A stretch of DNA of 64,000 bases. Source: Bacteroidota bacterium (lineage in GTDB: Bacteria; Bacteroidota; Bacteroidia; UKL13-3). Where the stretch lies: the NCBI GenBank assembly GCA_947457395.1, contig CANGVA010000003.1, positions 2,063-66,062 on the forward strand. Reading direction: 5' to 3'. The notes beneath the pieces are model-generated. The model was not told the origin of the DNA. It ran no database searches and saw only the letters and a list, made by a program, of their open reading frames with translations. Positions 3,790 to 43,395 of this stretch are shown in pieces. Each line of letters opens with the position of its first letter. Position 1 is the first letter of the stretch. The position numbers and the translations under genes are program-made.

Positions 3790-5808
3790 TTATTCTGCTT
3801 CGTCACCCAAAATGCCATCCGGGCTCATTATGGTGTCAACCAGATTAGTATCCGGTGCAAGTTTAATAAACTCTTTTGCTTTACCCGGAATAGGAAATAG
3901 GTGTGTTAGGTTCATGGTATCTTCCGGCATCAAAACTGTTCTGCGAACCATCAAATCAGATAAAAATTTAAACTGCCTGCCTACAAAATCTTTCAGGTTT
4001 CCTTGTTTGTCAAAACGCCACATAAACCCTTTAGGCCTTGGAATAATGGTTGCTAAAAACAAGCTCTCTCCAAGGGTTAGGTCTGAAGGTTTTTTACTAA
4101 AGTAAAAACGTGATGCCTCACCAATACCATAAACATTGGGTCCCCATTCAATAATATTTAAATACACCTCAAACATGCGCTCTTTAGTGGACAAGCGATT
4201 GTTTTCTAAAATATATACCAGCAATATTTCTTCCAGTTTTCGCGATAAGGTTTTTTCTCTTGTTAAGAATACATTTTTAACCAACTGCATGCTGATGGTG
4301 CTGGCACCGCGTGCAAATTTTCTTTTACGAATGTTTTTAATTATTGACTGACGAAAGGCTTCATCAATAAAACCTCGGTGATAAAAGAAAGATGGATCTT
4401 CAGTAGTAAGCACAGATTTTTTTAGGTAGGGTGAAATCTGATCAAGCGGAGTAAAATCAGGATTGGCAAGGCTAACCAGGATGGGGCGCATGGGTCTTCC
4501 GTTTTCAATTGGCACGTGCACAAAATCACTGTTAAGCTTATTTAGATTAGCTTCGCCATATTGTTTAATAAACAGGCCATACTTTTGCAGATTGCTTTCA
4601 AAAAGCAAGTCTTTTGGTTTGTTTTCATTGTAAACAAAATCCATACGGTAATCAAACGAGCCTTCTACCAACATGCCTTGAAAATGGTTGAAGAGCCCTT
4701 CAGGTAAAGATGAAATAAACTCCTGTGCCGGCATTTGCGGTATGCGAATGCCAAGCCTAACAATGGTATCAGGGCTGTTTTCAAATTGTATAAACGGATG
4801 AAATGCTACTTGATTAAAGCGAATAACAGAACTGCTATCTAAACCTATAAAGCTTGCACCTGCCTGCACATGATAAGCAATCGATGCATGGTTTATTACT
4901 ACATCACGTTTAGATATTTTGGGATGATTGATTAAAAATTGCGAAATGGAGGCAGAGCCTTTAACGTGCAATACATCATCTTCCAGGGTTACGGATGCCA
5001 GTGTAAAACGAATTGAATCAAAACCGGTATTCAGATTAAATTTATCTGTAATATATGGTATACGAATACCATCGGTATCCTGATTAAACAATTGAACATC
5101 GGCTTTCTTTTCTCTCGGACTGGCATTACCTTCAAGCACCCAATGCTGCTTAAAATCTCTGGCATTTACAATGATGTCAGAGTGTAGGGCCTCATCTGCC
5201 AGTTGTAACTGCTGCACCTTGAAAGAAACAGTTTGTGCATCTTCTTTAAAACGTAGCTCACATGCTTGTAACAGCAAATTACTTGGCACCTGAGATAATA
5301 TTTTTGAAATCAGGTTGTAAACCGTTTTTGCATAGTTTGATTGCTTATCGGTATTGGCATCTTCGGTTGTTGCTTCTTCATCGGATTTTTCAGGATGCAG
5401 AAAGTAATCAATATTGGTTACTGAATCTGTTTTAACTAATTGTATAAGGCCATTTTCAACCAGTACATCCCTTATCCTAAAATCAAGGAGTAGAGCGTAT
5501 CCTAGCCTAATGCTACTTTGCACGTTTTGTGCATACAGCAAGGTATCCATCCCAGCGGGTACAAGACAAAGCTGCTGAATTTGCACACCGGCCAGCCCGG
5601 TAAATGCAGCGTGGCTGTATGTTAATTTTGTTTGGTAAGTTGTTTGCAGTTTAGCAGCTGCCTTATCCATCACCTTGCGCAAAAGATAATTACGCAGGCC
5701 AAAGAAAGACAACACAGCTAAAAGCAAAAAAACACCGGCAACAATGGCCAGTGTTCTGAATATCTTTTTTGCTTTACGGGCAACAACCATGGATGGTTTG
5801 CTAATCAA
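3790..5808 (-). CDS. Monofunctional peptidoglycan glycosyltransferase (GT51) with a long N-terminal membrane-anchored extension
   Basis: C-terminal GT51 motifs EDPSFFYHRGFIDEAF and RGASTISMQLVKNVFL. One N-terminal transmembrane helix. About 450 aa of unassigned sequence lies in between. Confidence 0.8.
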   Translation of the reverse strand: MISKPSMVVARKAKKIFRTLAIVAGVFLLLAVLSFFGLRNYLLRKVMDKAAAKLQTTYQTKLTYSHAAFTGLAGVQIQQLCLVPAGMDTLLYAQNVQSSIRLGYALLLDFRIRDVLVENGLIQLVKTDSVTNIDYFLHPEKSDEEATTEDANTDKQSNYAKTVYNLISKILSQVPSNLLLQACELRFKEDAQTVSFKVQQLQLADEALHSDIIVNARDFKQHWVLEGNASPREKKADVQLFNQDTDGIRIPYITDKFNLNTGFDSIRFTLASVTLEDDVLHVKGSASISQFLINHPKISKRDVVINHASIAYHVQAGASFIGLDSSSVIRFNQVAFHPFIQFENSPDTIVRLGIRIPQMPAQEFISSLPEGLFNHFQGMLVEGSFDYRMDFVYNENKPKDLLFESNLQKYGLFIKQYGEANLNKLNSDFVHVPIENGRPMRPILVSLANPDFTPLDQISPYLKKSVLTTEDPSFFYHRGFIDEAFRQSIIKNIRKRKFARGASTISMQLVKNVFLTREKTLSRKLEEILLVYILENNRLSTKERMFEVYLNIIEWGPNVYGIGEASRFYFSKKPSDLTLGESLFLATIIPRPKGFMWRFDKQGNLKDFVGRQFKFLSDLMVRRTVLMPEDTMNLTHLFPIPGKAKEFIKLAPDTNLVDTIMSPDGILGDEAE

Positions 5809-5810
5809 AA

Positions 5811-6377
5811 TTAAACGTGCATCAATTCCGCTTCTTTGGCAGCAGTGATATCGTCTATTTTCTTAATATAGTTGTCGGTTGTTTTTTGTATTTGTGTTTC
5901 GGCACCCTTTGCTTCATCCTCGGCTAAACCTTCTTTTTGAAGTTTCTTTACAGCTTCATTCGCATCTTTACGAATATTTCGAATGGCTACTTTGGCGTGT
6001 TCCGCTTCACCTTTTACTTTTTTCACCGTTTCTTTTCTGCGCTCTTCAGTTAGGGGTGGAAGTGTAATGCGCACAATATTTCCATCATTGGTTGGCTGCA
6101 GCCCAAGATTGGCAATCACAATACCTTTTTCAATAGGTTGTATCATGGCCTTTTCCCATGGTTGTATCACAATGGATTTTGCATCGGGTGTACTTACGTT
6201 GGCTACCTGATTCAGCGGCACTAGGCTTCCATAATAATCAACTTTTACGGCATCAACCATGCTGGGGTGTGCTTTGCCTGCGCGAATTTTTGCAAACTCA
6301 GATGCTGCGTGATCAATCGCCTTATCCATGGCTGATTTCAGGCTATCAAAAACTTCTTTTAAACGTGGGTCGCTCAT
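5811..6377 (-). CDS. frr: ribosome recycling factor
   Basis: Full-length RRF-like sequence (FAKIRAGKAHPSMVDAVKVDYYG..., LPPLTEERRKE). Conserved frr-pyrH-tsf-rpsB neighbourhood. Confidence 0.95.
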   Translation of the reverse strand: MSDPRLKEVFDSLKSAMDKAIDHAASEFAKIRAGKAHPSMVDAVKVDYYGSLVPLNQVANVSTPDAKSIVIQPWEKAMIQPIEKGIVIANLGLQPTNDGNIVRITLPPLTEERRKETVKKVKGEAEHAKVAIRNIRKDANEAVKKLQKEGLAEDEAKGAETQIQKTTDNYIKKIDDITAAKEAELMHV

Positions 6378-33513: not shown

Positions 33514-33574
33514 ACGGCTGCAAATAAATAAAAAAAGAATGGAGAAGCGAGAGACGAGAAACGAGACAAAAGAA

Positions 33575-33664
33575 GAAAGACCGCTACGCTCAAAGAGGAA
33601 AGACAAAAGACCGCTGTACTCAAAGAGGAAAGACAAAAGACCGCTGTACTCAAAGAGGAAAGAT
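33575..33664 (-). repeat. Three tandem copies of a 30-bp unit (GACCGCTGTACTCAAAGAGGAAAGACAAAA on the + strand)
   Basis: The period is exactly 30 bp (33581, 33611, 33641). One inverted copy is present at 39455-39490. Confidence 0.9.
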
Positions 33665-33679
33665 GCGAGAGATGAAACA

Positions 33680-34016
33680 GAATTTTCTAACCTTCTAATC
33701 ATTAACCCGCAATCACAAACCGCAATCATTAACCCGCCATATCAAATCTTTCAATCTTTTAATTTTTCAATCTTCTAATAACAAACCCGCAATCACAAAC
33801 CCGTAATCATTAACCCGCCATATCAAATTTTTCAATCTTCTAATAACAAACCCGCAATCACAAACCCGTAATCATTAACCCGCCATATCAAATCTTTCAA
33901 TCTTCTAATAATTAACCCGCAATAAATAACACTTAATAACAAACTCGCAATATTTAACCCGTAATAATTAACCCGCAATCTCTAATCCTTCAATCTTCTC
34001 CTAACAAACGTAACCC
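33680..34016 (-). repeat. Tandem array of a 65-bp unit (about four copies, plus degenerate ends), starting directly after the stop codon of the HAD gene
   Basis: Unit CAATCTTCTAATAACAAACCCGCAATCACAAACCCGTAATCATTAACCCGCCATATCAAATTTTT, with copies starting at 33768, 33833 and 33898. The + strand is G-poor. Related modules occur at 39372-39440 (inverted) and 42439-42588. Confidence 0.9.
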
Positions 34017-34640: not shown

Positions 34641-34761
34641 AGTACTACCTAAATTAATGTTTGCAGGATAGTTTATCTGAGAGGTCGTCCGAAGGTGTTT
34701 GCCCCTAAAAAACTTACCTCCGCAATTCGGGATAAACTTCTTCCCCAATAACGGTTTTTTT

Positions 34762-34796
34762 AAATAAAAAAACCGGGTCAGCCTGCGCTGCCCGGT
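34762..34796 (-). terminator. Rho-independent terminator (duplicated copy)
   Basis: On the minus strand: ACCGGGCAGCGCAGGCTGACCCGGT followed by TTTTTTT. Confidence 0.7.
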
Positions 34797-34890
34797 CCCA
34801 CGTTGTGGGCCCACTTGGGATTCCCGAGTGCCTTAGCTGCGCTTACCTCCGCAATTCGGGATAAACTTCTTCCCCAATAACGGTTTTTTT

Positions 34891-34925
34891 AAATAAAAAA
34901 ACCGGGTCAGCCTGCGCTGCCCGGT
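34891..34925 (-). terminator. Rho-independent terminator directly downstream of tRNA-Met
   Basis: The same hairpin, ACCGGGCAGC-GCAG-GCTGACCCGGT, plus a T7 run, 10 nt after the tRNA 3' end. Confidence 0.75.
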
Positions 34926-34934
34926 CCCACGTTG

Positions 34935-35008
34935 TGGGCCCACTTGGGATCGAACCAAGCACCCCCTGATTATGAGTCAGATGCTCTAACCGAATGAGCT
35001 ATGGGCCC
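34935..35008 (-). tRNA. tRNA with anticodon CAT (elongator Met, or Ile2 if lysidine-modified); CCA not encoded
   Basis: Reverse complement: GGGCCCA TA GCTC ATTCGGTTA GAGC A TCTGA CTCATAA TCAGG GGGTG CTTGG TTCGATC CCAAG TGGGCCC A. G1-C72 is paired, so this is not an initiator tRNA. Confidence 0.9.
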
Positions 35009-38093: not shown

Positions 38094-39371
38094 ATGAACC
38101 ATGCCGAACTGATAAATTTGTTGTTTTGCTTAGGCATCATGCTGCTGCTCGGCCGTGTTCTGGGTGAGTTTTTTAGAAAACTTAAAATGCCGCTGGTTGT
38201 GGGTGAGCTACTGGCAGGCCTTATTCTGGGACCAAGCCTGTTGGGTAAATTTTACCCGGAACTAAATCAGCTTATTTTTACAACAAAAGGAAATGTGGGC
38301 ATGGCACTAAACGGTATCACCACCATTTCCGTTGTGATGTTACTTTTTGTTGCCGGCATGGAGGTAGAACTTTCTATAATAAGACAGCAAGGCACTACTG
38401 CATTTAAATCCAGTCTGGTTGGATTGCTGATTCCACTTGGCTTAGGCTTTGCAGCAGGATACTATTTTGCAGACTGGCTTGGCGGCAAAGGGCAACATGA
38501 TGGAAAGGTATTTGCATTGTTTATGGGTACAGCCATGGCCATATCGGCCTTACCTGTTATTGCCCGCACCCTCATGGATCTTGATTTGTTTAAAACCAAA
38601 ATAGGCATGATCATTATTGCGGCAGCCATGTTTGATGATTTAATAGGCTGGATTTTATTTAGCGTGGTGTTGGGCATGATACATACCGGAAGTGATCAGT
38701 TTGAATTTTTATACATTCTGGGTTATACCTTTTTGTATGCCATACTTATGCTAACCGCAGGCCGCATTATAATTAACCGCGCGCTGCCCTGGGCACAACG
38801 TAATTTAAGCTGGCCCGGTGGAGTGCTTGCATTCTCCTTTGGACTTGCCTTTTTGGGTGCTGCACTTACCGAAAAAATTGGTATACATGCCATATTTGGT
38901 GCATTTATAGCCGGTGTAGCCATTGGTGATTCTGTTCATCTAAATGAAAAAACACGTGACATTATTCATCAGTTTGTAACCAATATTTTTGCTCCACTGT
39001 TTTTTGTTTCGGTAGGTTTTAAAGTTGATTTTATAAAAAACTTTGACCTGAGTATTGTTACCGTGGTGCTGGTGTTGGCCATTGCTTGCAAATTGCTGGG
39101 AGCAGGATTGGGCGCACTTTGGGGAGGGTTAAGTTTTAGGGAAGCATCGGCAGTAGGATTTGGTATGAATGCACGCGGTGCTATGGAAATTGTGTTGGGT
39201 TTACTTGCCTTACAGGCGGGGGTTATTTCTGAACCACTGTTTGTGGCGTTGGTTGTAATGGCAGTAATTACATCGGTTATGGCAGGTCCCATGCTACAAT
39301 ATTTACTTACCGGTGAAATGAAAGTGAATGTTAAACTAAGAGATATTCTTCCGGTTAAAGAGGGAGAGTGA
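38094..39371 (+). CDS. Cation:proton antiporter (CPA2, Kef/NapA-like)
   Basis: About 12 transmembrane helices. N-terminus LLLGRVLGEFFRKLKMPLVVGELLAGLILGPSLLG is typical of Na+/H+ exchanger family proteins. Lies 11 nt after the Usp gene. Confidence 0.8.
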   Translation: MNHAELINLLFCLGIMLLLGRVLGEFFRKLKMPLVVGELLAGLILGPSLLGKFYPELNQLIFTTKGNVGMALNGITTISVVMLLFVAGMEVELSIIRQQGTTAFKSSLVGLLIPLGLGFAAGYYFADWLGGKGQHDGKVFALFMGTAMAISALPVIARTLMDLDLFKTKIGMIIIAAAMFDDLIGWILFSVVLGMIHTGSDQFEFLYILGYTFLYAILMLTAGRIIINRALPWAQRNLSWPGGVLAFSFGLAFLGAALTEKIGIHAIFGAFIAGVAIGDSVHLNEKTRDIIHQFVTNIFAPLFFVSVGFKVDFIKNFDLSIVTVVLVLAIACKLLGAGLGALWGGLSFREASAVGFGMNARGAMEIVLGLLALQAGVISEPLFVALVVMAVITSVMAGPMLQYLLTGEMKVNVKLRDILPVKEGE

Positions 39372-39500
39372 TTGCAGGGTTGGTTTATTACGCGTTTTGT
39401 TATTGCGGGGTAATTATTAGAAGATTAGAAAATTCTGTTTCATCTCTCGCATCTTTCCTATTTGAGTGTAGCGGTCTTTTGTCTTTCGTCTTCAGCGCAG
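39372..39500 (+). repeat. Single-copy version of the 33.5-34.0 kb repeat family, beginning immediately after the antiporter stop codon
   Basis: 39416-39490 (ATTAGAAGATTAGAAAATTCTGTTTCATCTCTCGCATCTTTCCTATTTGAGTGTAGCGGTCTTTTGTCTTTC) is the near-exact reverse complement of 33611-33700. 39372-39415 resembles the reverse complement of the CCCGCAAT/TTCTAAT modules. Confidence 0.85.
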
Positions 39501-39601
39501 CAATCTTTCCTCTCATTCATATCATTCAAACCTCGAAATTTCCTGTGTGTTACATCTATTAGTAAAAATTTTGTTCTTTTCCCAACTAAAAAATCATTCT
39601 C

Positions 39602-39619
39602 TTTTCAATTAATTGAAAA
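39602..39619. promoter_or_regulatory. Perfect 18-bp palindrome, candidate operator upstream of the DnaB-like gene
   Basis: TTTTCAATTAATTGAAAA is its own reverse complement. It lies about 143 nt upstream of the ATG at 39762. Confidence 0.3.
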
Positions 39620-39749
39620 CCATCTTCATTAATAATTCTCCACAAGTAGTTCTTCAGTAAATATAAGGTGTGTATAACGCAATGGCAATCCCTTTGCGGC
39701 TTTCAGCCATTGTGCATGAATAAGTTGGATTTGGACACCCTACGCATTT

Positions 39750-39757
39750 TAATTTTG
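39750..39757 (+). promoter_or_regulatory. Bacteroidota -7 box-like motif (TAnnTTTG) just upstream of the DnaB-like ATG
   Basis: TAATTTTG fits the TAnnTTTG consensus. At only 5 nt from the ATG it would imply a leaderless or near-leaderless transcript. Confidence 0.25.
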
Positions 39758-39761
39758 TTTC

Positions 39762-41093
39762 ATGGATTTTTCATCAACAGGTCCGGATAGTAAATGGATA
39801 GCTGCTCAGCAAAGGGTGGTGAAGGTACTCTTGCAGCAACCAAGATTATTTTTGCGTTATGCCGAACAATTGCGTGAAGATTATTTTACCGAACCCAATC
39901 TTAAATTATTAATCCGTACTATGCACACGCTGCATGGCACCTTTGGCATATTTGATTTGTATCTGCTTAGAAACAGTTTGCATTATGAACTTGATGAAAC
40001 CACGCTTGCAACACTTCATCAGTGGTCAGCAGCAGTAGTTGAATCCGATGATATAACGTATGATATTTCTTTACTAAAGGATTATGCGGCACGCAGATTG
40101 GTTCATGATTTAGGTAAATTGCTGCAGCAAAAGAGTTTCAATGATGAAATAGAGGTTTCAGAACTCAAAGATTATATACATACATATACCCGTATGCTGG
40201 ATGAGATGCAACCTGCTAGCCAAACGGAAAGTTTAAAACAAATACTGGATCGCATACAAATAGAAAATTCTGTTGCAAACAACTGCACATGGTTTGATAC
40301 GCAGCTGCAGGATTATTTAGGAAACCTTGATCCGGGAGAGCTGGTAGTGATAGGTTCCCGACCCGGTGTGGGCAAAACAGCTTTTATCCATACACAGCTG
40401 GTTCATCTGGCATGTGCCTGTAAGATACCGGTTGGCTATATTAACCTGGTAGAAAATGATCACAATCTGGTGCTAAAATTACTTAAGGTTTCTGAAGGCT
40501 GCAGAGATGAGTTAAAGCATGATACATTGCCTGATCATGAACAGCCATGGCCAATATATATCAGCAATAATTTAGCAGGTAGTCGTTTTAGGGATATTAA
40601 GGCGGCAGCCAATTACCTCAAATATAAATATGATATCCAGGTGCTGGCTATCGACTGCTTTCAGCAAATTACCTATCAGCCTAAAATGAATTACCGTGAT
40701 TATGAACTTGGACAGGTGTTGAAGGAAATAAAACGCATGGCTAAAGAAATGAATATGGCGGTTATACTTACTTCTCAACTGAGCAGAATGACAGAAAAGC
40801 GCGGCTATTTGGGAATGCCCGTATTGAGCGACCTTAAAGAAACCAGCTATCTGGAAGAAGTGGCCGATAAGGTTTTGCTGCTGCACAGATATGACTATTA
40901 TGGTATTACAGTGTATGAGGATGGCACACCAACCGGTAATGACAGCAATGTTTTGATAGCTAAAAATAAGTATGGAAAATCGGGTAAGGTGTTATTATCA
41001 TTTGATAGTAAGTTGGGGAAGTTTTTGCCTAAAGCACAACCACTGCCTATGGTGTTTGAGTTTCCGGCAAACAGGCTAACCGATTTGGAATAA
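39762..41093 (+). CDS. Divergent DnaB-family hexameric helicase-like ATPase (443 aa), candidate retron-associated effector
   Basis: Walker A GSRPGVGKTAF. Possible catalytic-Glu motif INLVEN (compare FSLEMS). Walker B VLAIDCFQQI. SQLSRMTEKRG and LSDLKETSYLEEVADKVLLLHRYDYYG (compare DnaB LSQLSR and LSDLRESG.IEQDAD.V.FL.R). The N-terminal QQRVVKVLLQQPRLF...FTEPNLKLLIRTM is DnaB-N-like. It is shorter and more degenerate than typical Bacteroidota DnaB. Confidence 0.75.
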   Translation: MDFSSTGPDSKWIAAQQRVVKVLLQQPRLFLRYAEQLREDYFTEPNLKLLIRTMHTLHGTFGIFDLYLLRNSLHYELDETTLATLHQWSAAVVESDDITYDISLLKDYAARRLVHDLGKLLQQKSFNDEIEVSELKDYIHTYTRMLDEMQPASQTESLKQILDRIQIENSVANNCTWFDTQLQDYLGNLDPGELVVIGSRPGVGKTAFIHTQLVHLACACKIPVGYINLVENDHNLVLKLLKVSEGCRDELKHDTLPDHEQPWPIYISNNLAGSRFRDIKAAANYLKYKYDIQVLAIDCFQQITYQPKMNYRDYELGQVLKEIKRMAKEMNMAVILTSQLSRMTEKRGYLGMPVLSDLKETSYLEEVADKVLLLHRYDYYGITVYEDGTPTGNDSNVLIAKNKYGKSGKVLLSFDSKLGKFLPKAQPLPMVFEFPANRLTDLE

Positions 41094-41110
41094 ACATATT
41101 CGGTGCACCA

Positions 41111-41259
41111 TTACACAAATACAATGAAGACATGCTAAAGTCTTGTAACTGTTGTTTCTGCAGTTGATTTAAAAATAGCCGGTGGCAGCCAACGAACAAG
41201 TTTCACTTCGTTCACTTGTTCGTTGCTTCAGGGGGTTAAATAGATTGTATTTGTTGTAA
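41111..41259 (+). ncRNA. Retron msr/msd-like non-coding RNA (predicted)
   Basis: a1 TTACACAAATACAAT (41111-41125) pairs with a2 ATTGTATTTGTTGTAA (41244-41259) with one bulge. G41126 directly follows a1 (branching-G position). Short hairpins AAGAC/GTCTT (41127-41144) and AACTG/CAGTT (41147-41165). A perfect 12-bp stem CAACGAACAAGT/ACTTGTTCGTTG (41190-41201 and 41214-41225) has a 12-nt loop. The region ends 34 nt before the RT start. Confidence 0.6.
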
Positions 41260-41293
41260 TGTGTGCCCGATTTTTAACGATGAATTTTTGGTG

Positions 41294-42295
41294 ATGAGAT
41301 CACTTGAAGAACTTTTAAAAATATTAGCAATTTCTTCGGAGCTTTTGCAACAATTACTTGCAGCACCGGAGTATACGATATACCATATTTCCAAAAAAAG
41401 CGGAGGCACACGCACCATTCAGGCGCCTCAGGGATTGTTGCGTCAAACACAGGTTCTGCTGGCAAAGTACCTTCAGACAGTTTATTCCCGCCATCACTTG
41501 CCATGCATACATGGATTTGTTCCATCAGCCGGTTTGCTAAAATATGGAGTTCTGTCAAATGCAGTACCTCATTTAAATAAGCCCTTTGTATTAAATATGG
41601 ATATTAAAAACTTTTTTGAAAGTATAACGGCAAAAAAAGTGAAGAAAAGCTTGTGTGAATTTCCATATTATTTTAATGAAGAAGTGGCAACAGCTATTGC
41701 ATTGTTGTGCACGTATCAAAAACAATTGCCTACAGGCGCTCCTACTTCTCCCGTATTATCAAACATGGTATTTTATATTCCGGATGTGGCTTTGTTGCAA
41801 TGGATAACAGATGTGAACGAGACAAAGCAAATTGATGAAACAGGCATTAGTTATACCAGATATGCAGATGATTTAACTTTTTCAGGATCGGCAAATCTGG
41901 TGCTTTCACTGCAGGCTCGCATCATATCATTTTTTGCTACTGAGGGATTTGAAATCAATGCAAAAAAAACAAGGGCACAAACACCTCATGGACCTCAATG
42001 GGTGACGGGAATAAAGGTGAATGAAAGATTAAACATTAGCAGGTATTATATCAGAAACCTGAGAGCTGTCATACATCAGATGCGGGTTCATGCTGCAGAA
42101 GCTGTTGTGTGCAGGTATTTAAAATTACCGGCTACAACGCAAATAAATACTGCGCATGTAAAAAAGATGTTGAGCAGTGTACAATCAAAAATAGCATGGG
42201 TAGGAATGGTAAGAGGCAAAGCAGACCCGATATATCTGCGTTTACAAACTCAATTTAATGTAGCAAGGGAGGTGATGCTGGTAAAAGAATCTTGA
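41294..42295 (+). CDS. Retron-type reverse transcriptase
   Basis: YHISKKSGGTRTIQAP (RT1/2). SNAVPH (retron NAxxH). VLNMDIKNFFESI (RT3). LPTGAPTSPVLSNM (RT4). YTRYADDLTFSG (RT5, YADD). FEINAKKT (RT6/7). WVTGIKVN (retron VTG). Collinear with Ec86 RT as I remember it. Start moved to the ATG at 41294, because the ATG at 41261 would overlap a2. Confidence 0.9.
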   Translation: MRSLEELLKILAISSELLQQLLAAPEYTIYHISKKSGGTRTIQAPQGLLRQTQVLLAKYLQTVYSRHHLPCIHGFVPSAGLLKYGVLSNAVPHLNKPFVLNMDIKNFFESITAKKVKKSLCEFPYYFNEEVATAIALLCTYQKQLPTGAPTSPVLSNMVFYIPDVALLQWITDVNETKQIDETGISYTRYADDLTFSGSANLVLSLQARIISFFATEGFEINAKKTRAQTPHGPQWVTGIKVNERLNISRYYIRNLRAVIHQMRVHAAEAVVCRYLKLPATTQINTAHVKKMLSSVQSKIAWVGMVRGKADPIYLRLQTQFNVAREVMLVKES

Positions 42296-42438
42296 AGGGG
42301 AATGCGGGAATTAGGTGTTAGGTCTATGCAACTTAATATTCAACAATGAGTATACAGCTGTTGGCCTTTGGCTGTTTGAAGTTTTTTAACGTAGTGTCTA
42401 ATGCTTGGGATTTGGGTATTAGGTGTTGATGATTTGCG

Positions 42439-42588
42439 ATTAAATATAAATATCTAAATTACTCAATCTCCTAATTTTCTAATCTTTTAATCTTCTAATA
42501 ACAAACCTTCTAACCTTCTAATCTTTCAATCTTCTAATAACAAACCTTCTAACCTTCTAAACTTTCAATCTTTTAATCTTCCAATCTT
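42439..42588 (-). repeat. Repeat-family locus 3, abutting the pyrF stop codon; two 39-bp tandem units plus degenerate copies
   Basis: AATCTTCTAATAACAAACCTTCTAACCTTCTAATCTTTC at 42489 and 42528. It shares TTCTAATCTTCTAATAACAAAC modules with 33.7-34.0 kb. The + strand has no G from 42439 to 42605. Confidence 0.85.
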
Positions 42589-43395
42589 CTAATCTCCTAC
42601 ATACTGCGCCATTTCATCTGCCATTTTTTTAGCTTCGGCTGCAGCAGCTTCGGCAAAATCTTTACCTGATGAGGCATAGATGATGCTGCGTGAGGCATTG
42701 ATAAGCAATCCGCAATCCTGATTCATGCCATATTTTACCACATCGGCCAGACTGCCTCCTTGCGCACCCACACCGGGTACCAATAGAAAATGATCGGGGA
42801 TGAGTTTACGAATATGAGCCAATTCCTCTGCTTTGGTTGCACCAACCACAAACATCAGGTTGCCTGTATTACCAATTTGTGTGGTAGTTGTAATCACATG
42901 CTCATATAACTTTCGGTTACCAATAAGTTGTTGTTCATAGTCGGCACTGCCCGGATTGGATGTAAGCGCAAGTACAATGCCCCATCTGTTGTCGTAGGCA
43001 AAGAATGGTGCTATGGAATCTTTACCCATGTATGGTGCCAGTGTTACGGAATGAAATGGCAATGTTTCAAAGAATGCGCGTGCATACATATTGCTGGTAT
43101 TGCCAATATCTCCTCTTTTGGCATCTGCTATGGTAAAGATATTTTCAGGTATGTGAAACAGGGTGCGCTCCATGCTTTCCCAACCCTTAACGCCATTGGC
43201 CTCATAAAATGCAGTGTTGATTTTATAACTAACACAGTAATCTTTGGTGGCATCAATAATGGCCTTATTAAATTCAAATACAGGATCATCCAGGTGTAAT
43301 AAGTGTGACGGTATTTTTTTAATATCGGTATCTAGGCCTACACATAAAAAACTTTTTTTTAGTTTAATCTGCTTTATGAGTTCTGTTCTGTTCAT
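42589..43395 (-). CDS. pyrF: orotidine 5'-phosphate decarboxylase (long, type 2-like form)
   Basis: FLCVGLDTD, DAKRGDIGNT, VPGVGAQGG. Start at the ATG at 43395 (MNRTELI). Confidence 0.9.
   Translation of the reverse strand: MNRTELIKQIKLKKSFLCVGLDTDIKKIPSHLLHLDDPVFEFNKAIIDATKDYCVSYKINTAFYEANGVKGWESMERTLFHIPENIFTIADAKRGDIGNTSNMYARAFFETLPFHSVTLAPYMGKDSIAPFFAYDNRWGIVLALTSNPGSADYEQQLIGNRKLYEHVITTTTQIGNTGNLMFVVGATKAEELAHIRKLIPDHFLLVPGVGAQGGSLADVVKYGMNQDCGLLINASRSIIYASSGKDFAEAAAAEAKKMADEMAQYVGD

Follow-up and report, generated by a model that had tools for sequence, protein, structure and literature searches.

The 64,000-nucleotide stretch of DNA considered here, referred to throughout as the window (GenBank assembly GCA_947457395.1, contig CANGVA010000003.1, positions 2,063 to 66,062 of the forward strand), comes from a member of the Bacteroidota and harbors what appears to be a retron operon of three parts. 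These are a dnaB-like gene (39762-41093), a structured msr/msd RNA (41099-41270), and a gene for a reverse transcriptase (RT; 41294-42295), all found in the same orientation. We put the probability that the locus is such an operon, and hence a retron with a DnaB-like effector, at about 0.85. A preliminary description of this DNA had already recognized the RT and the RNA as a retron. That reading is supported as far as it goes, but it overlooked the conserved DnaB-like gene, which lay outside the stretch it described. It is this gene that makes the locus unusual, and the earlier reading is therefore incomplete rather than wrong. The features of the module are collected in Table 1.

Table 1. Features of the retron module and of its left edge, in window coordinates (MFE, minimum free energy; aa, amino acids).
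Feature	Position	Strand	Basis or remark
Module left edge and presumed promoter region	39412..39761	+	homology to L001 begins at 39412
AATCTTCT repeat, short inverted copy	39414-39434	-	at the exact left module edge
Putative retron effector gene, diverged two-domain DnaB-family protein, 443 aa	39762..41093	+	Pfam, AlphaFold, linkage
Retron non-coding RNA (msr-msd)	41099..41270	+	fold; covariance model match 41099-41269
a1 arm of terminal inverted repeat	41100..41125	+	pairs with 41244-41270 in MFE and centroid structures
Candidate branching (priming) guanosine	41126	+	unpaired, directly 3' of a1; role predicted
msr hairpin 1, AAGAC / GTCTT, 5 bp	41127..41144	+	5/5 pairs with compensatory changes in distant loci
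msr hairpin 2, 7 bp, conserved loop TGTTTCTGC/TGTACCTGC	41146..41166	+	4/7 pairs with compensatory changes
msd stem-loop, template of the predicted msDNA hairpin	41176..41238	+	11/11 stem pairs with compensatory changes
Conserved msd motif CACTTCGTT	41204-41212	+	msd apical loop
a2 arm of terminal inverted repeat	41244..41270	+	overlaps GTG 41261; fold and covariation
Retron RT, 333 aa, clade 8, type XI-like, without fused effector domain	41294..42295	+	profiles, motifs, structures

The RT carries the features by which retron enzymes are generally recognized. Its translation (41261/41294-42295) reads ...VLSNAVPHLNKPFVLNMDIKNFF..., ...YTRYADDLTF..., and ...QWVTGIKVN..., and the stretch around the NAxxH motif reads ...SNAVPHLNKPFVLNMDIKNFF.... 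The two retron-specific regions, X (NAxxH, found as SNAVPH) and Y (VTG, found as WVTG), are thereby both present alongside YxDD, as had been noted in the preliminary description. Counted from the ATG at 41294, NAxxH occupies N89-H93, YADD 190-193, and VTG 237-239, and the residues N89, A90, H93, Y190-A191-D192-D193, and V237-T238-G239 are invariant in 20 RT homologs. Pfam returns a match to RVT_1 (5e-16), and the best 25 PADLOC profiles listed for the protein are retron RT models throughout, headed by RT-Protease_XI (1.2e-82, 276 bits), RT-TIR_XII (4.6e-76), and RT-Toprim_I-C (2.2e-71). The best 12 matches among solved structures are also retron RTs, with Ec86 (5e-28) and Ec67 (1e-26) followed by Kva2, Ec83, Ec78, and others; the matches to these named enzymes span 5e-28 to 4e-11, and a group II intron RT is found at 3.5e-05.

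Placement of the RT in clade 8 of the retron enzymes draws on the order of the profiles (XI > XII > I-C) and on a neighbor-joining tree, which together serve as a proxy for a reference phylogeny. In this tree the RT joins the PADLOC-typed RTs of types XI, XII, and I-C, and the DnaB-linked RTs make up a clade of their own, apart from the PADLOC-typed enzymes that are fused to a protease, TIR, or Toprim domain. By profile and tree, the enzyme is placed as a retron RT of Mestre clade 8, closest to type XI without the protease fusion, and PADLOC, the structures, and the tree agree with the preliminary description in putting it with the retron RTs. No protease domain is found in the protein, the chain stopping after the thumb; its alignment with the 510-position PADLOC RT-protease profile is confined to the RT part, positions 5-321, and true fusions (loci L029, L033, and L037) align across the full profile. 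A tblastn search with the RT in phage and plasmid collections gave nothing above 38% identity, the best plasmid match being a 584-aa fused RT of Herpetosiphon pHAU01 that has no DnaB-like neighbor; this search brought no cultured carrier to light.

Two other kinds of retroelement were considered for this RT and rejected. A group II intron was rejected because no intron RNA family is matched and group_II_RT_mat reaches 53 bits against a cut-off of 300. A diversity-generating retroelement was rejected because a template/variable repeat pair was not found in 39300-42700 and the RT profile matches are to retron models.

The start of the RT gene bears on the RNA that precedes it. An upstream alternative at 41261 lies inside the a2 repeat, and the homologs align only from the methionine at 41294, so that the latter is likely to be the true start. 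It had been favored in the preliminary description as well, although the codon at 41261, there taken for an ATG, is a GTG. The stop codon of the DnaB-like gene occupies 41091-41093, and the gap from this stop to the RT ATG at 41294 is 200 nucleotides; the 183 nucleotides quoted earlier for the gap are counted from 41111. The DnaB-like reading frame ends 6 nucleotides before the RNA.

Folded as RNA, the region 41094-41293 reaches -63.8 kcal/mol (z = -5.05, with 0/200 shuffles as stable) and takes up the msr/msd layout of a retron. The structure is enclosed by an a1/a2 stem of 25 bp with 3 bulges (41100-41125 / 41244-41270). The 15/16-nucleotide repeat pair that had been described (41111-41125 / 41244-41259) is real, but forms only the inner part of this longer stem. 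The G directly 3' of a1 is unpaired in the fold, the two short msr hairpins are found where they had been proposed, and the perfect 12-bp hairpin at 41190-41225 (41190-41201 / 41214-41225) turns out to be the core of a longer msd stem-loop. When the reverse complement of 41168-41243 is folded as DNA it gives a 14-bp hairpin (z = -4.5), which is the expected stem of the multicopy single-stranded DNA (msDNA).

The same architecture recurs across the related loci, which are numbered here with the prefix L. Nine close loci, whose RTs are 52-100% identical, share the RNA layout; among them the outer a1 arm and both msr hairpins hardly vary, and compensatory changes fall in the msd stem and the inner part of the a1/a2 stem. 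A covariance model, R1, built from 8 close-relative sequences, finds full-length matches in distant loci (RT ~35-41% identical), always between the DnaB-like gene and the RT, with E-values of 4e-07 (L053), 8e-07 (L015), 8e-06 (L011), 2e-04 (L027), 3e-04 (L021), and 0.03 (L013). In the resulting 14-sequence alignment, 94.7% of cells are standard pairs, against 31-45% when the partners are slid by 1-3 columns, and in 35/39 pairs both partners have changed, compared with 12-14 pairs in the slid controls, with 0/500 shuffles reaching the observed values; these counts are taken from an alignment fitted to the structure of the model, which favors that structure. All 14 pairs of the a1/a2 helix show compensatory changes across the 14 loci, and conservation across the family is highest in msr hairpin 2. 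The conservation and covariation of the a1/a2 and msd helices in related loci, which the preliminary description had expected of a true retron, are thereby borne out.

Independent MFE folds of 24 loci point in the same direction, in that nearly all have an enclosing a1/a2 stem made from unrelated sequences, examples being GCACCAUUAC..., GAGCCGUUG..., CAGGCAGGCC..., and UUGUUGCCC...; in a few loci AT-rich flanks pair beyond a1/a2, and automatic parsing of the outer stem is noisy there. The RNA has the full layout of a retron and its helices covary. A search of 40500-42800 in Rfam at a permissive threshold gave no retron msr family, returning only chance-level matches of the eukaryotic snoRNA type.

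The msd harbors a further conserved element, located in its apical loop in the window. The motif C[AG]CT[GTC]CG[CT]T is found in 21 of the 32 loci of the family, its background frequency being 0.06 per kb, and it persists in the msd of the window and of 20 other loci while the stem sequences around it vary freely. It could act as a signal for recognition or for termination, either in the template or in the msDNA. The motif is often doubled, as in CGCTGCGCTGC.

It might be argued that the RT uses this RNA in a non-retron manner, for template-repeat or untemplated DNA synthesis or as a scaffold, and that branched msDNA is not formed. Consistent with such a view, no recognizable non-coding RNA was found for type XI in the 2020 survey of Mestre et al. 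(PMC7736814), Rfam gives no match, some loci lack a G at the branch position, and the RT scores below all NCBIfam retron cut-offs. It is nevertheless improbable. NAxxH and VTG are invariant, the NCBIfam models Drt2 (1e-07) and Drt3a (3e-06) score far lower than the retron models, and a1, the G, the msr hairpins, the msd hairpin, and a2 follow one another in full order directly upstream of the RT. Moreover, an experimental census includes validated non-coding RNAs for type XI retrons of clade 8 (PMC10849725).

The third part of the operon is the DnaB-like protein. From its N-terminus it runs through a helical domain and a linker to a RecA-like ATPase domain, and it closes with a C-terminal tail specific to the family, FEFPANRLTDLE. 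Pfam recognizes DnaB_C (1e-37), AAA_25, and, weakly, the DnaB N-terminal domain (1e-05). An AlphaFold model of the protein (predicted local distance difference test score, pLDDT, of 82) matches full-length DnaB structures with E ~1e-25 over ~430-450 aligned columns. The protein resembles DnaB and T7 gp4 in this two-domain fold and in its Walker A/B, SQLSR, and SDLRES motifs, but differs from DnaB in a number of respects. Its identity to canonical DnaBs is 22-27%, and its score with the NCBIfam DnaB model TIGR00665 is 159.7 bits against a cut-off of 385.25, the remaining DnaB models likewise falling below their cut-offs. The RT-linked proteins are always found with an RT, evolve fast, and form their own clade in a tree of DnaB-family proteins, and many of them are only ~330-350 aa long and are without the N-terminal domain. 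Judged by these comparisons, the gene encodes something other than the replicative helicase of the cell. In PADLOC, no defense model matches the protein.

The nucleotide-binding apparatus appears to be intact. The Walker A (GKT/S) and Walker B (D..Q) motifs are kept, with conservative substitutions, in essentially all 24 family sequences, as are the SQLSR motif (strictly S-Q/H/S-L/V-S/N-R) and the SDLRESG..E..AD motif (SDLKETSYLEEVAD in the window), and the lysine of Walker A and the aspartate of Walker B never vary; because these motifs are kept, nucleotide binding can be argued for. The residues associated with catalysis are altered. The arginine finger, AKxRNG in DnaB, is replaced by AKNKYG (K403) in the window and AKNTDG in the sister clade, with R found in most distant members. 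The position of the canonical catalytic Glu (SLEMS) is occupied by V or I in the window clade (V in the window), with an E shifted to +1.

All RT-linked members share a C-terminal extension, FxF[PS]xxR[LM]x[DE]L, which canonical DnaBs do not have. In most members this extension is followed by a short acidic stretch that ends PF-COOH; the window clade stops at ...NRLTDLE. The terminal acidic Pro-Phe, for example ...EELEEPF or ...DDDSVPF, is seen in L011, L013, L014, L017, L018, L023-L027, L047, L053, L095, and L096. We take such a tail to resemble the C-terminal tip of bacterial SSB and the tail of T7 gp4. The T7 protein has an acidic, Phe-terminated tail that docks on T7 polymerase.

The connection between the DnaB-like gene and the RT is remarkably constant. 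The locus set comprised L001-L003, L005-L009, the P0006 contig, L011-L013, eighteen metagenome loci, L095 (Parabacteroides sp.), and L096 (a Crocinitomicaceae metagenome-assembled genome, MAG), the metagenome scan having used generic RT patterns that returned mostly relatives of <=41% identity rather than the 53-59% clade and so served to type the wider family. In all 35 of the 35 related loci with enough upstream flank, the RT is immediately preceded by a DnaB-like gene in the same orientation. These include L001-L003, L005-L009, L011-L018, L021, L023-L027, L032, L047, L053, L077, L095, L096, and the P0006 contig. Where no DnaB-like open reading frame could be detected in a member of the clade, the locus is truncated by the end of its contig. 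The linkage holds from 35% to 100% RT identity among the inspected Bacteroidota loci, and the genes that flank the pair vary from locus to locus. Distance matrices for the two proteins are closely correlated (Mantel r = 0.945), none of 2000 permutations being as high. Because of this constant linkage, the pairing of the clades, and the Mantel correlation, the DnaB-like gene is taken, on comparative grounds, to be the third component of the retron, an obligate partner whose evolution goes hand in hand with that of the RT. A Clostridia locus (L010, 32% RT identity) was left out of the family because there is no DnaB-like gene within its locus and its RNA match is weak, with an E-value of 0.27.

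Comparison with one relative is particularly informative. In L003 (JAJTFA010000003.1, a Sphingobacteriales MAG), which was found in a scan of a genome collection, the RT protein is 100% identical to that of the window. At the DNA level, window positions 40941-42300 and L003 positions 4650-6010 are 100% identical apart from one small difference near 41175, in the RNA region. This identical block consists of the last ~50 codons of the DnaB-like gene together with the RNA and the RT. Immediately upstream, at 39760-40940, DNA identity is ~50-80%, and the flanks of the module are 93-96% identical, so that a sharp recombination breakpoint is seen inside the effector gene. Protein identity between the two alleles is 33% in the N-terminal domain, 47% in the linker, 56-74% in the ATPase domain, and 100% after residue 383, and overall the alleles are 58% identical, with 42% of residues differing. 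That such dissimilar effector alleles accompany an identical RT-RNA cassette in two close relatives is consistent with recombination and with diversifying selection on the effector, which would act above all on the N-terminal domain. A housekeeping role for the gene does not fit, because the alleles diverge beside near-identical flanks.

These observations bear on two further ways in which the locus could be explained. In the first, the retron is real and has a DnaB-like partner, but its role is non-immune, lying in the replication or priming of a selfish element, in DNA repair, or in housekeeping. The effector does come from a family of replication proteins, the window is outside a defense island, and no defense phenotype is known. 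In addition, the only relevant source that a literature search brought up for a DnaB-linked retron, a computational preprint (Toro, bioRxiv May 2026; 10.64898/2026.05.14.725207), describes the meaning of the DnaB_C link as unclear and raises a 'replication-related function'. Against this, all characterized retrons act in phage defense (PMC13402713, PMC12640716), and CRISPR-Cas is found near 17% of the loci in the preprint (10.64898/2026.05.14.725207). Defense-type neighbors are seen in some of the loci inspected here, namely a second RT and a WYL gene in L002 and L009, a WYL gene in L013, and Abi_2 and Fic in L095. Allele swapping and a fast-evolving N-terminal domain are typically seen in genes for immunity, and the module is patchily distributed, with different flanking genes from locus to locus. 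A non-immune role is accordingly considered very improbable.

The second, that the RT and RNA form a retron and the DnaB-like gene is an unrelated host replicative helicase or mobile-element replication helicase that is adjacent by chance, has in its favor a full DnaB fold with both domains, conserved nucleotide-binding motifs, relatives annotated as 'replicative DNA helicase' in some sources, and housekeeping neighbors in the window, but is the least credible of all given a score of 160 bits against an equivalog cut-off of 385, 22-27% identity in a separate clade, adjacency to an RT in every examined locus whatever the flanks, the Mantel correlation, the many members without an N-terminal domain, the 42% allele divergence amid 93-96% identical flanks, and the lack of integrase, replication, and phage genes alongside it in the window.

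A number of points nonetheless weigh against the assignment of the locus as a retron with a DnaB-like effector. The assignment of both retron and effector rests on computation, the msDNA, the defense function, and the toxicity all being predictions. The branch position is a G in 12/14 aligned loci and an A in L007 and L008, and G41126 is a likely, not a secure, branch point. The best NCBIfam matches of the RT are retron models, but all of them fall under their cut-offs (219/600, 195/450, and 170/235), and the covariation counts come, as stated, from an alignment that favors the modeled structure. The effector may be catalytically impaired, as its sequence has the arginine finger replaced and the Glu shifted. 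A separate canonical dnaB in the same genome could not be confirmed. The module has housekeeping surroundings in this Sphingobacteriales genome, its neighbors in the window being a universal stress protein, a Na+/H+ exchanger, and pyrF, outside any defense island. Finally, DnaB_C genes in the preprint lie mostly downstream of the RT (14/20, with 5 upstream; 10.64898/2026.05.14.725207), whereas here the gene is upstream in 35/35, and the window lineage and that of the preprint may not be identical.

The lineage in question is 'TXI_noncan_h', which was defined, by computation only, from 29 SPIRE loci in Bacillota and Bacteroidota, with an emphasis on the gut (10.64898/2026.05.14.725207). Like it, the present locus has a stand-alone, protease-less, type XI-like RT of clade 8 with NAxxH and VTG, an adjacent separate gene with a DnaB_C domain, Bacteroidota hosts, and no WYL gene in the module. 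The likeness extends to a candidate a1/a2-flanked RNA ending 22-104 bp before the RT start, the distance in the window being 23 nucleotides (41270 to 41294). Besides gene order, two differences can be listed. The RNA of the preprint is a compact double stem-loop of 23 bp, whereas here there are four covarying helices with 39 modeled pairs and a long msd hairpin; and the preprint stresses gut Bacteroidota and Bacillota, whereas the loci here come from environmental Sphingobacteriales and Chitinophaga-like MAGs. Compared by description, the locus is likely, though not proven, to be a member of TXI_noncan_h. A few kilobases upstream of the DnaB-type retron, two of the loci, L002 (614-3214) and L009 (686-1897), also have a second stand-alone type XI-like RT of 398-403 aa, which is encoded on the other strand; in L002 a WYL/WCX gene adjoins it. 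This second RT is probably the other lineage of the preprint, TXI_C2like, with two related retrons side by side.

Among the established types, XI, XII, and I-C make up clade 8, in which the C-terminus of the RT normally carries the effector as a fusion; neither a helicase nor a DnaB effector is among those listed by Mestre et al. (PMC7736814). Type XI, in which the RT is fused to a trypsin-like protease, provides the best-scoring profile (PADLOC RT-Protease_XI) within the same clade. Here, however, there is no protease and a separate DnaB-like effector is found instead, and the msr/msd RNA is readily identified, in contrast to its lack of recognition for type XI in 2020. The locus does not have the protease fusion that defines type XI and is not to be filed under that type. 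Ec67/Eco2 (type I-C, RT-Toprim) and type XII (RT-TIR) share with it an RT of clade 8 and an msr/msd RNA upstream of the RT, Ec67 being the second-closest solved structure to the window RT (1e-26). In those systems, however, the effector is fused and is a nuclease or TIR domain, whereas here it is a separate DnaB-family ATPase encoded upstream of the RNA.

In their overall organization, the closest parallels are Ec78 and Ec83 (PtuAB) and Eco8 (OLD-family nuclease), which are also tripartite, with an RT, msDNA, and a separate NTPase-containing effector. Effectors of this kind are held inactive by the RT-msDNA and are triggered by phage factors (PMC12640716, PMC13402713). Their ATPases, however, are of the ABC or OLD type and are coupled to nucleases, whereas the protein described here is a homolog of RecA-fold ring helicases without a nuclease domain, and their RTs are distant from that of the window (E 1e-12 to 3e-05). 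Relative to the 13-type peer-reviewed scheme, the locus would be a new variant; the DnaB-type retron as a kind has already been described computationally in the Toro preprint. What is new here is the swapping of effector alleles on an identical RT-RNA cassette, the replaced arginine finger, the distinctive C-terminal tail, and the msd motif.

The edges of the module and the surrounding intergenic regions contain several repeats. The 8-nucleotide unit AATCTTCT is repeated in tandem in ~17 copies at 42465-42599 (+), just 3' of the RT, and recurs in another intergenic region at ~33.7 kb (33683-33979); over the window as a whole it is matched 17 times, where 1.8 matches would be expected. Such repeat arrays could be hot-spots of recombination or insertion. 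A segment of ~150 nucleotides 3' of the RT stop (42296-42470) is present as a single copy in the window and as 2-3 diverged tandem copies in L001 (7193-7474). Further away, positions 34713-34950 contain a perfect tandem duplication (129-nucleotide unit, 1.8 copies, 100% match) in the intergenic region upstream of a dehydrogenase gene, and a 30-nucleotide tandem repeat (3.2 copies, 92% match) is found at 33569-33663, beside other short repeat arrays. The latter was ruled out as a CRISPR array because its copies run head to tail and are spacer-free. Open reading frames and profile annotation gave no integrase, replication, or phage genes adjoining the DnaB-like gene in the window. A scan for sigma-70 promoters gave sites no commoner than in shuffled sequence, using a consensus that is ill-suited to Bacteroidota, and a terminator scan returned, with no excess over shuffles, only segments of the msd hairpin in the wrong orientation.

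In several characterized retrons the RT-msDNA complex restrains the effector until a phage factor acts as trigger, as in Eco1 (10.1101/2023.08.16.553469), with a phage nuclease being the trigger for Eco7 (PMC12640716) and a phage SSB for Eco8 (PMC13402713). By analogy, the RT would prime from the 2'-OH of G41126 and copy the msd leftwards from ~41243, just upstream of a2, to give a branched msDNA of ~60-75 nucleotides with the 14-bp hairpin. The RT-msDNA would then bind the DnaB-like ring and keep it inactive until phage infection. Release could be brought about by a phage factor that acts on the msDNA, such as a nuclease, SSB, or methylase, or, alternatively, by a phage helicase loader or primase acting on the fast-evolving N-terminal domain of the effector. 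The freed ring would bind ATP, although it would probably be a poor motor because its arginine finger is replaced, and would load on single-stranded DNA or forks, blocking both host and phage replication and so aborting the infection. The variable N-terminal domain may represent the surface that is touched or evaded by phage replication proteins. As a specific mechanism, a ring that is parked on or held by the msDNA-RT and then blocks forks must be considered tentative, and is rather more likely to be wrong than right.

A more particular version, in which the DnaB-like effector is a replisome decoy, is doubtful. Here the N-terminal domain, which in DnaB is the contact for primase and the helicase loader, would sense phage replication proteins, and the C-terminal tail would dock the effector either on the RT, much as the tail of the T7 helicase does on its polymerase, or on binding partners of the SSB tip. 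Until then the ring would be parked on the msDNA, which would supply the single strand and has a conserved motif in its loop; once triggered, the ring would move to forks as a roadblock that, because of its defective arginine finger, does not translocate. If true, such a decoy would be the first retron, and the first defense system, with a mimic of the replicative helicase as its effector.

The effectors of characterized retrons are nucleases, enzymes that target NAD+ or nucleotides, membrane proteins, and proteases. A DnaB-family ring ATPase would represent a different retron output, possibly one of direct interference with the replication fork. The loci inspected here outnumber the 29 of the sole prior description, itself computational, and the system offers a number of experimental handles: a compact operon of 2.9 kb, a defined non-coding RNA with a predicted branch G, natural swaps of effector alleles, a substituted arginine finger, a conserved C-terminal tail, and a conserved msd motif. 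The retron could also provide a new Bacteroidota scaffold for msDNA-based genome editing.

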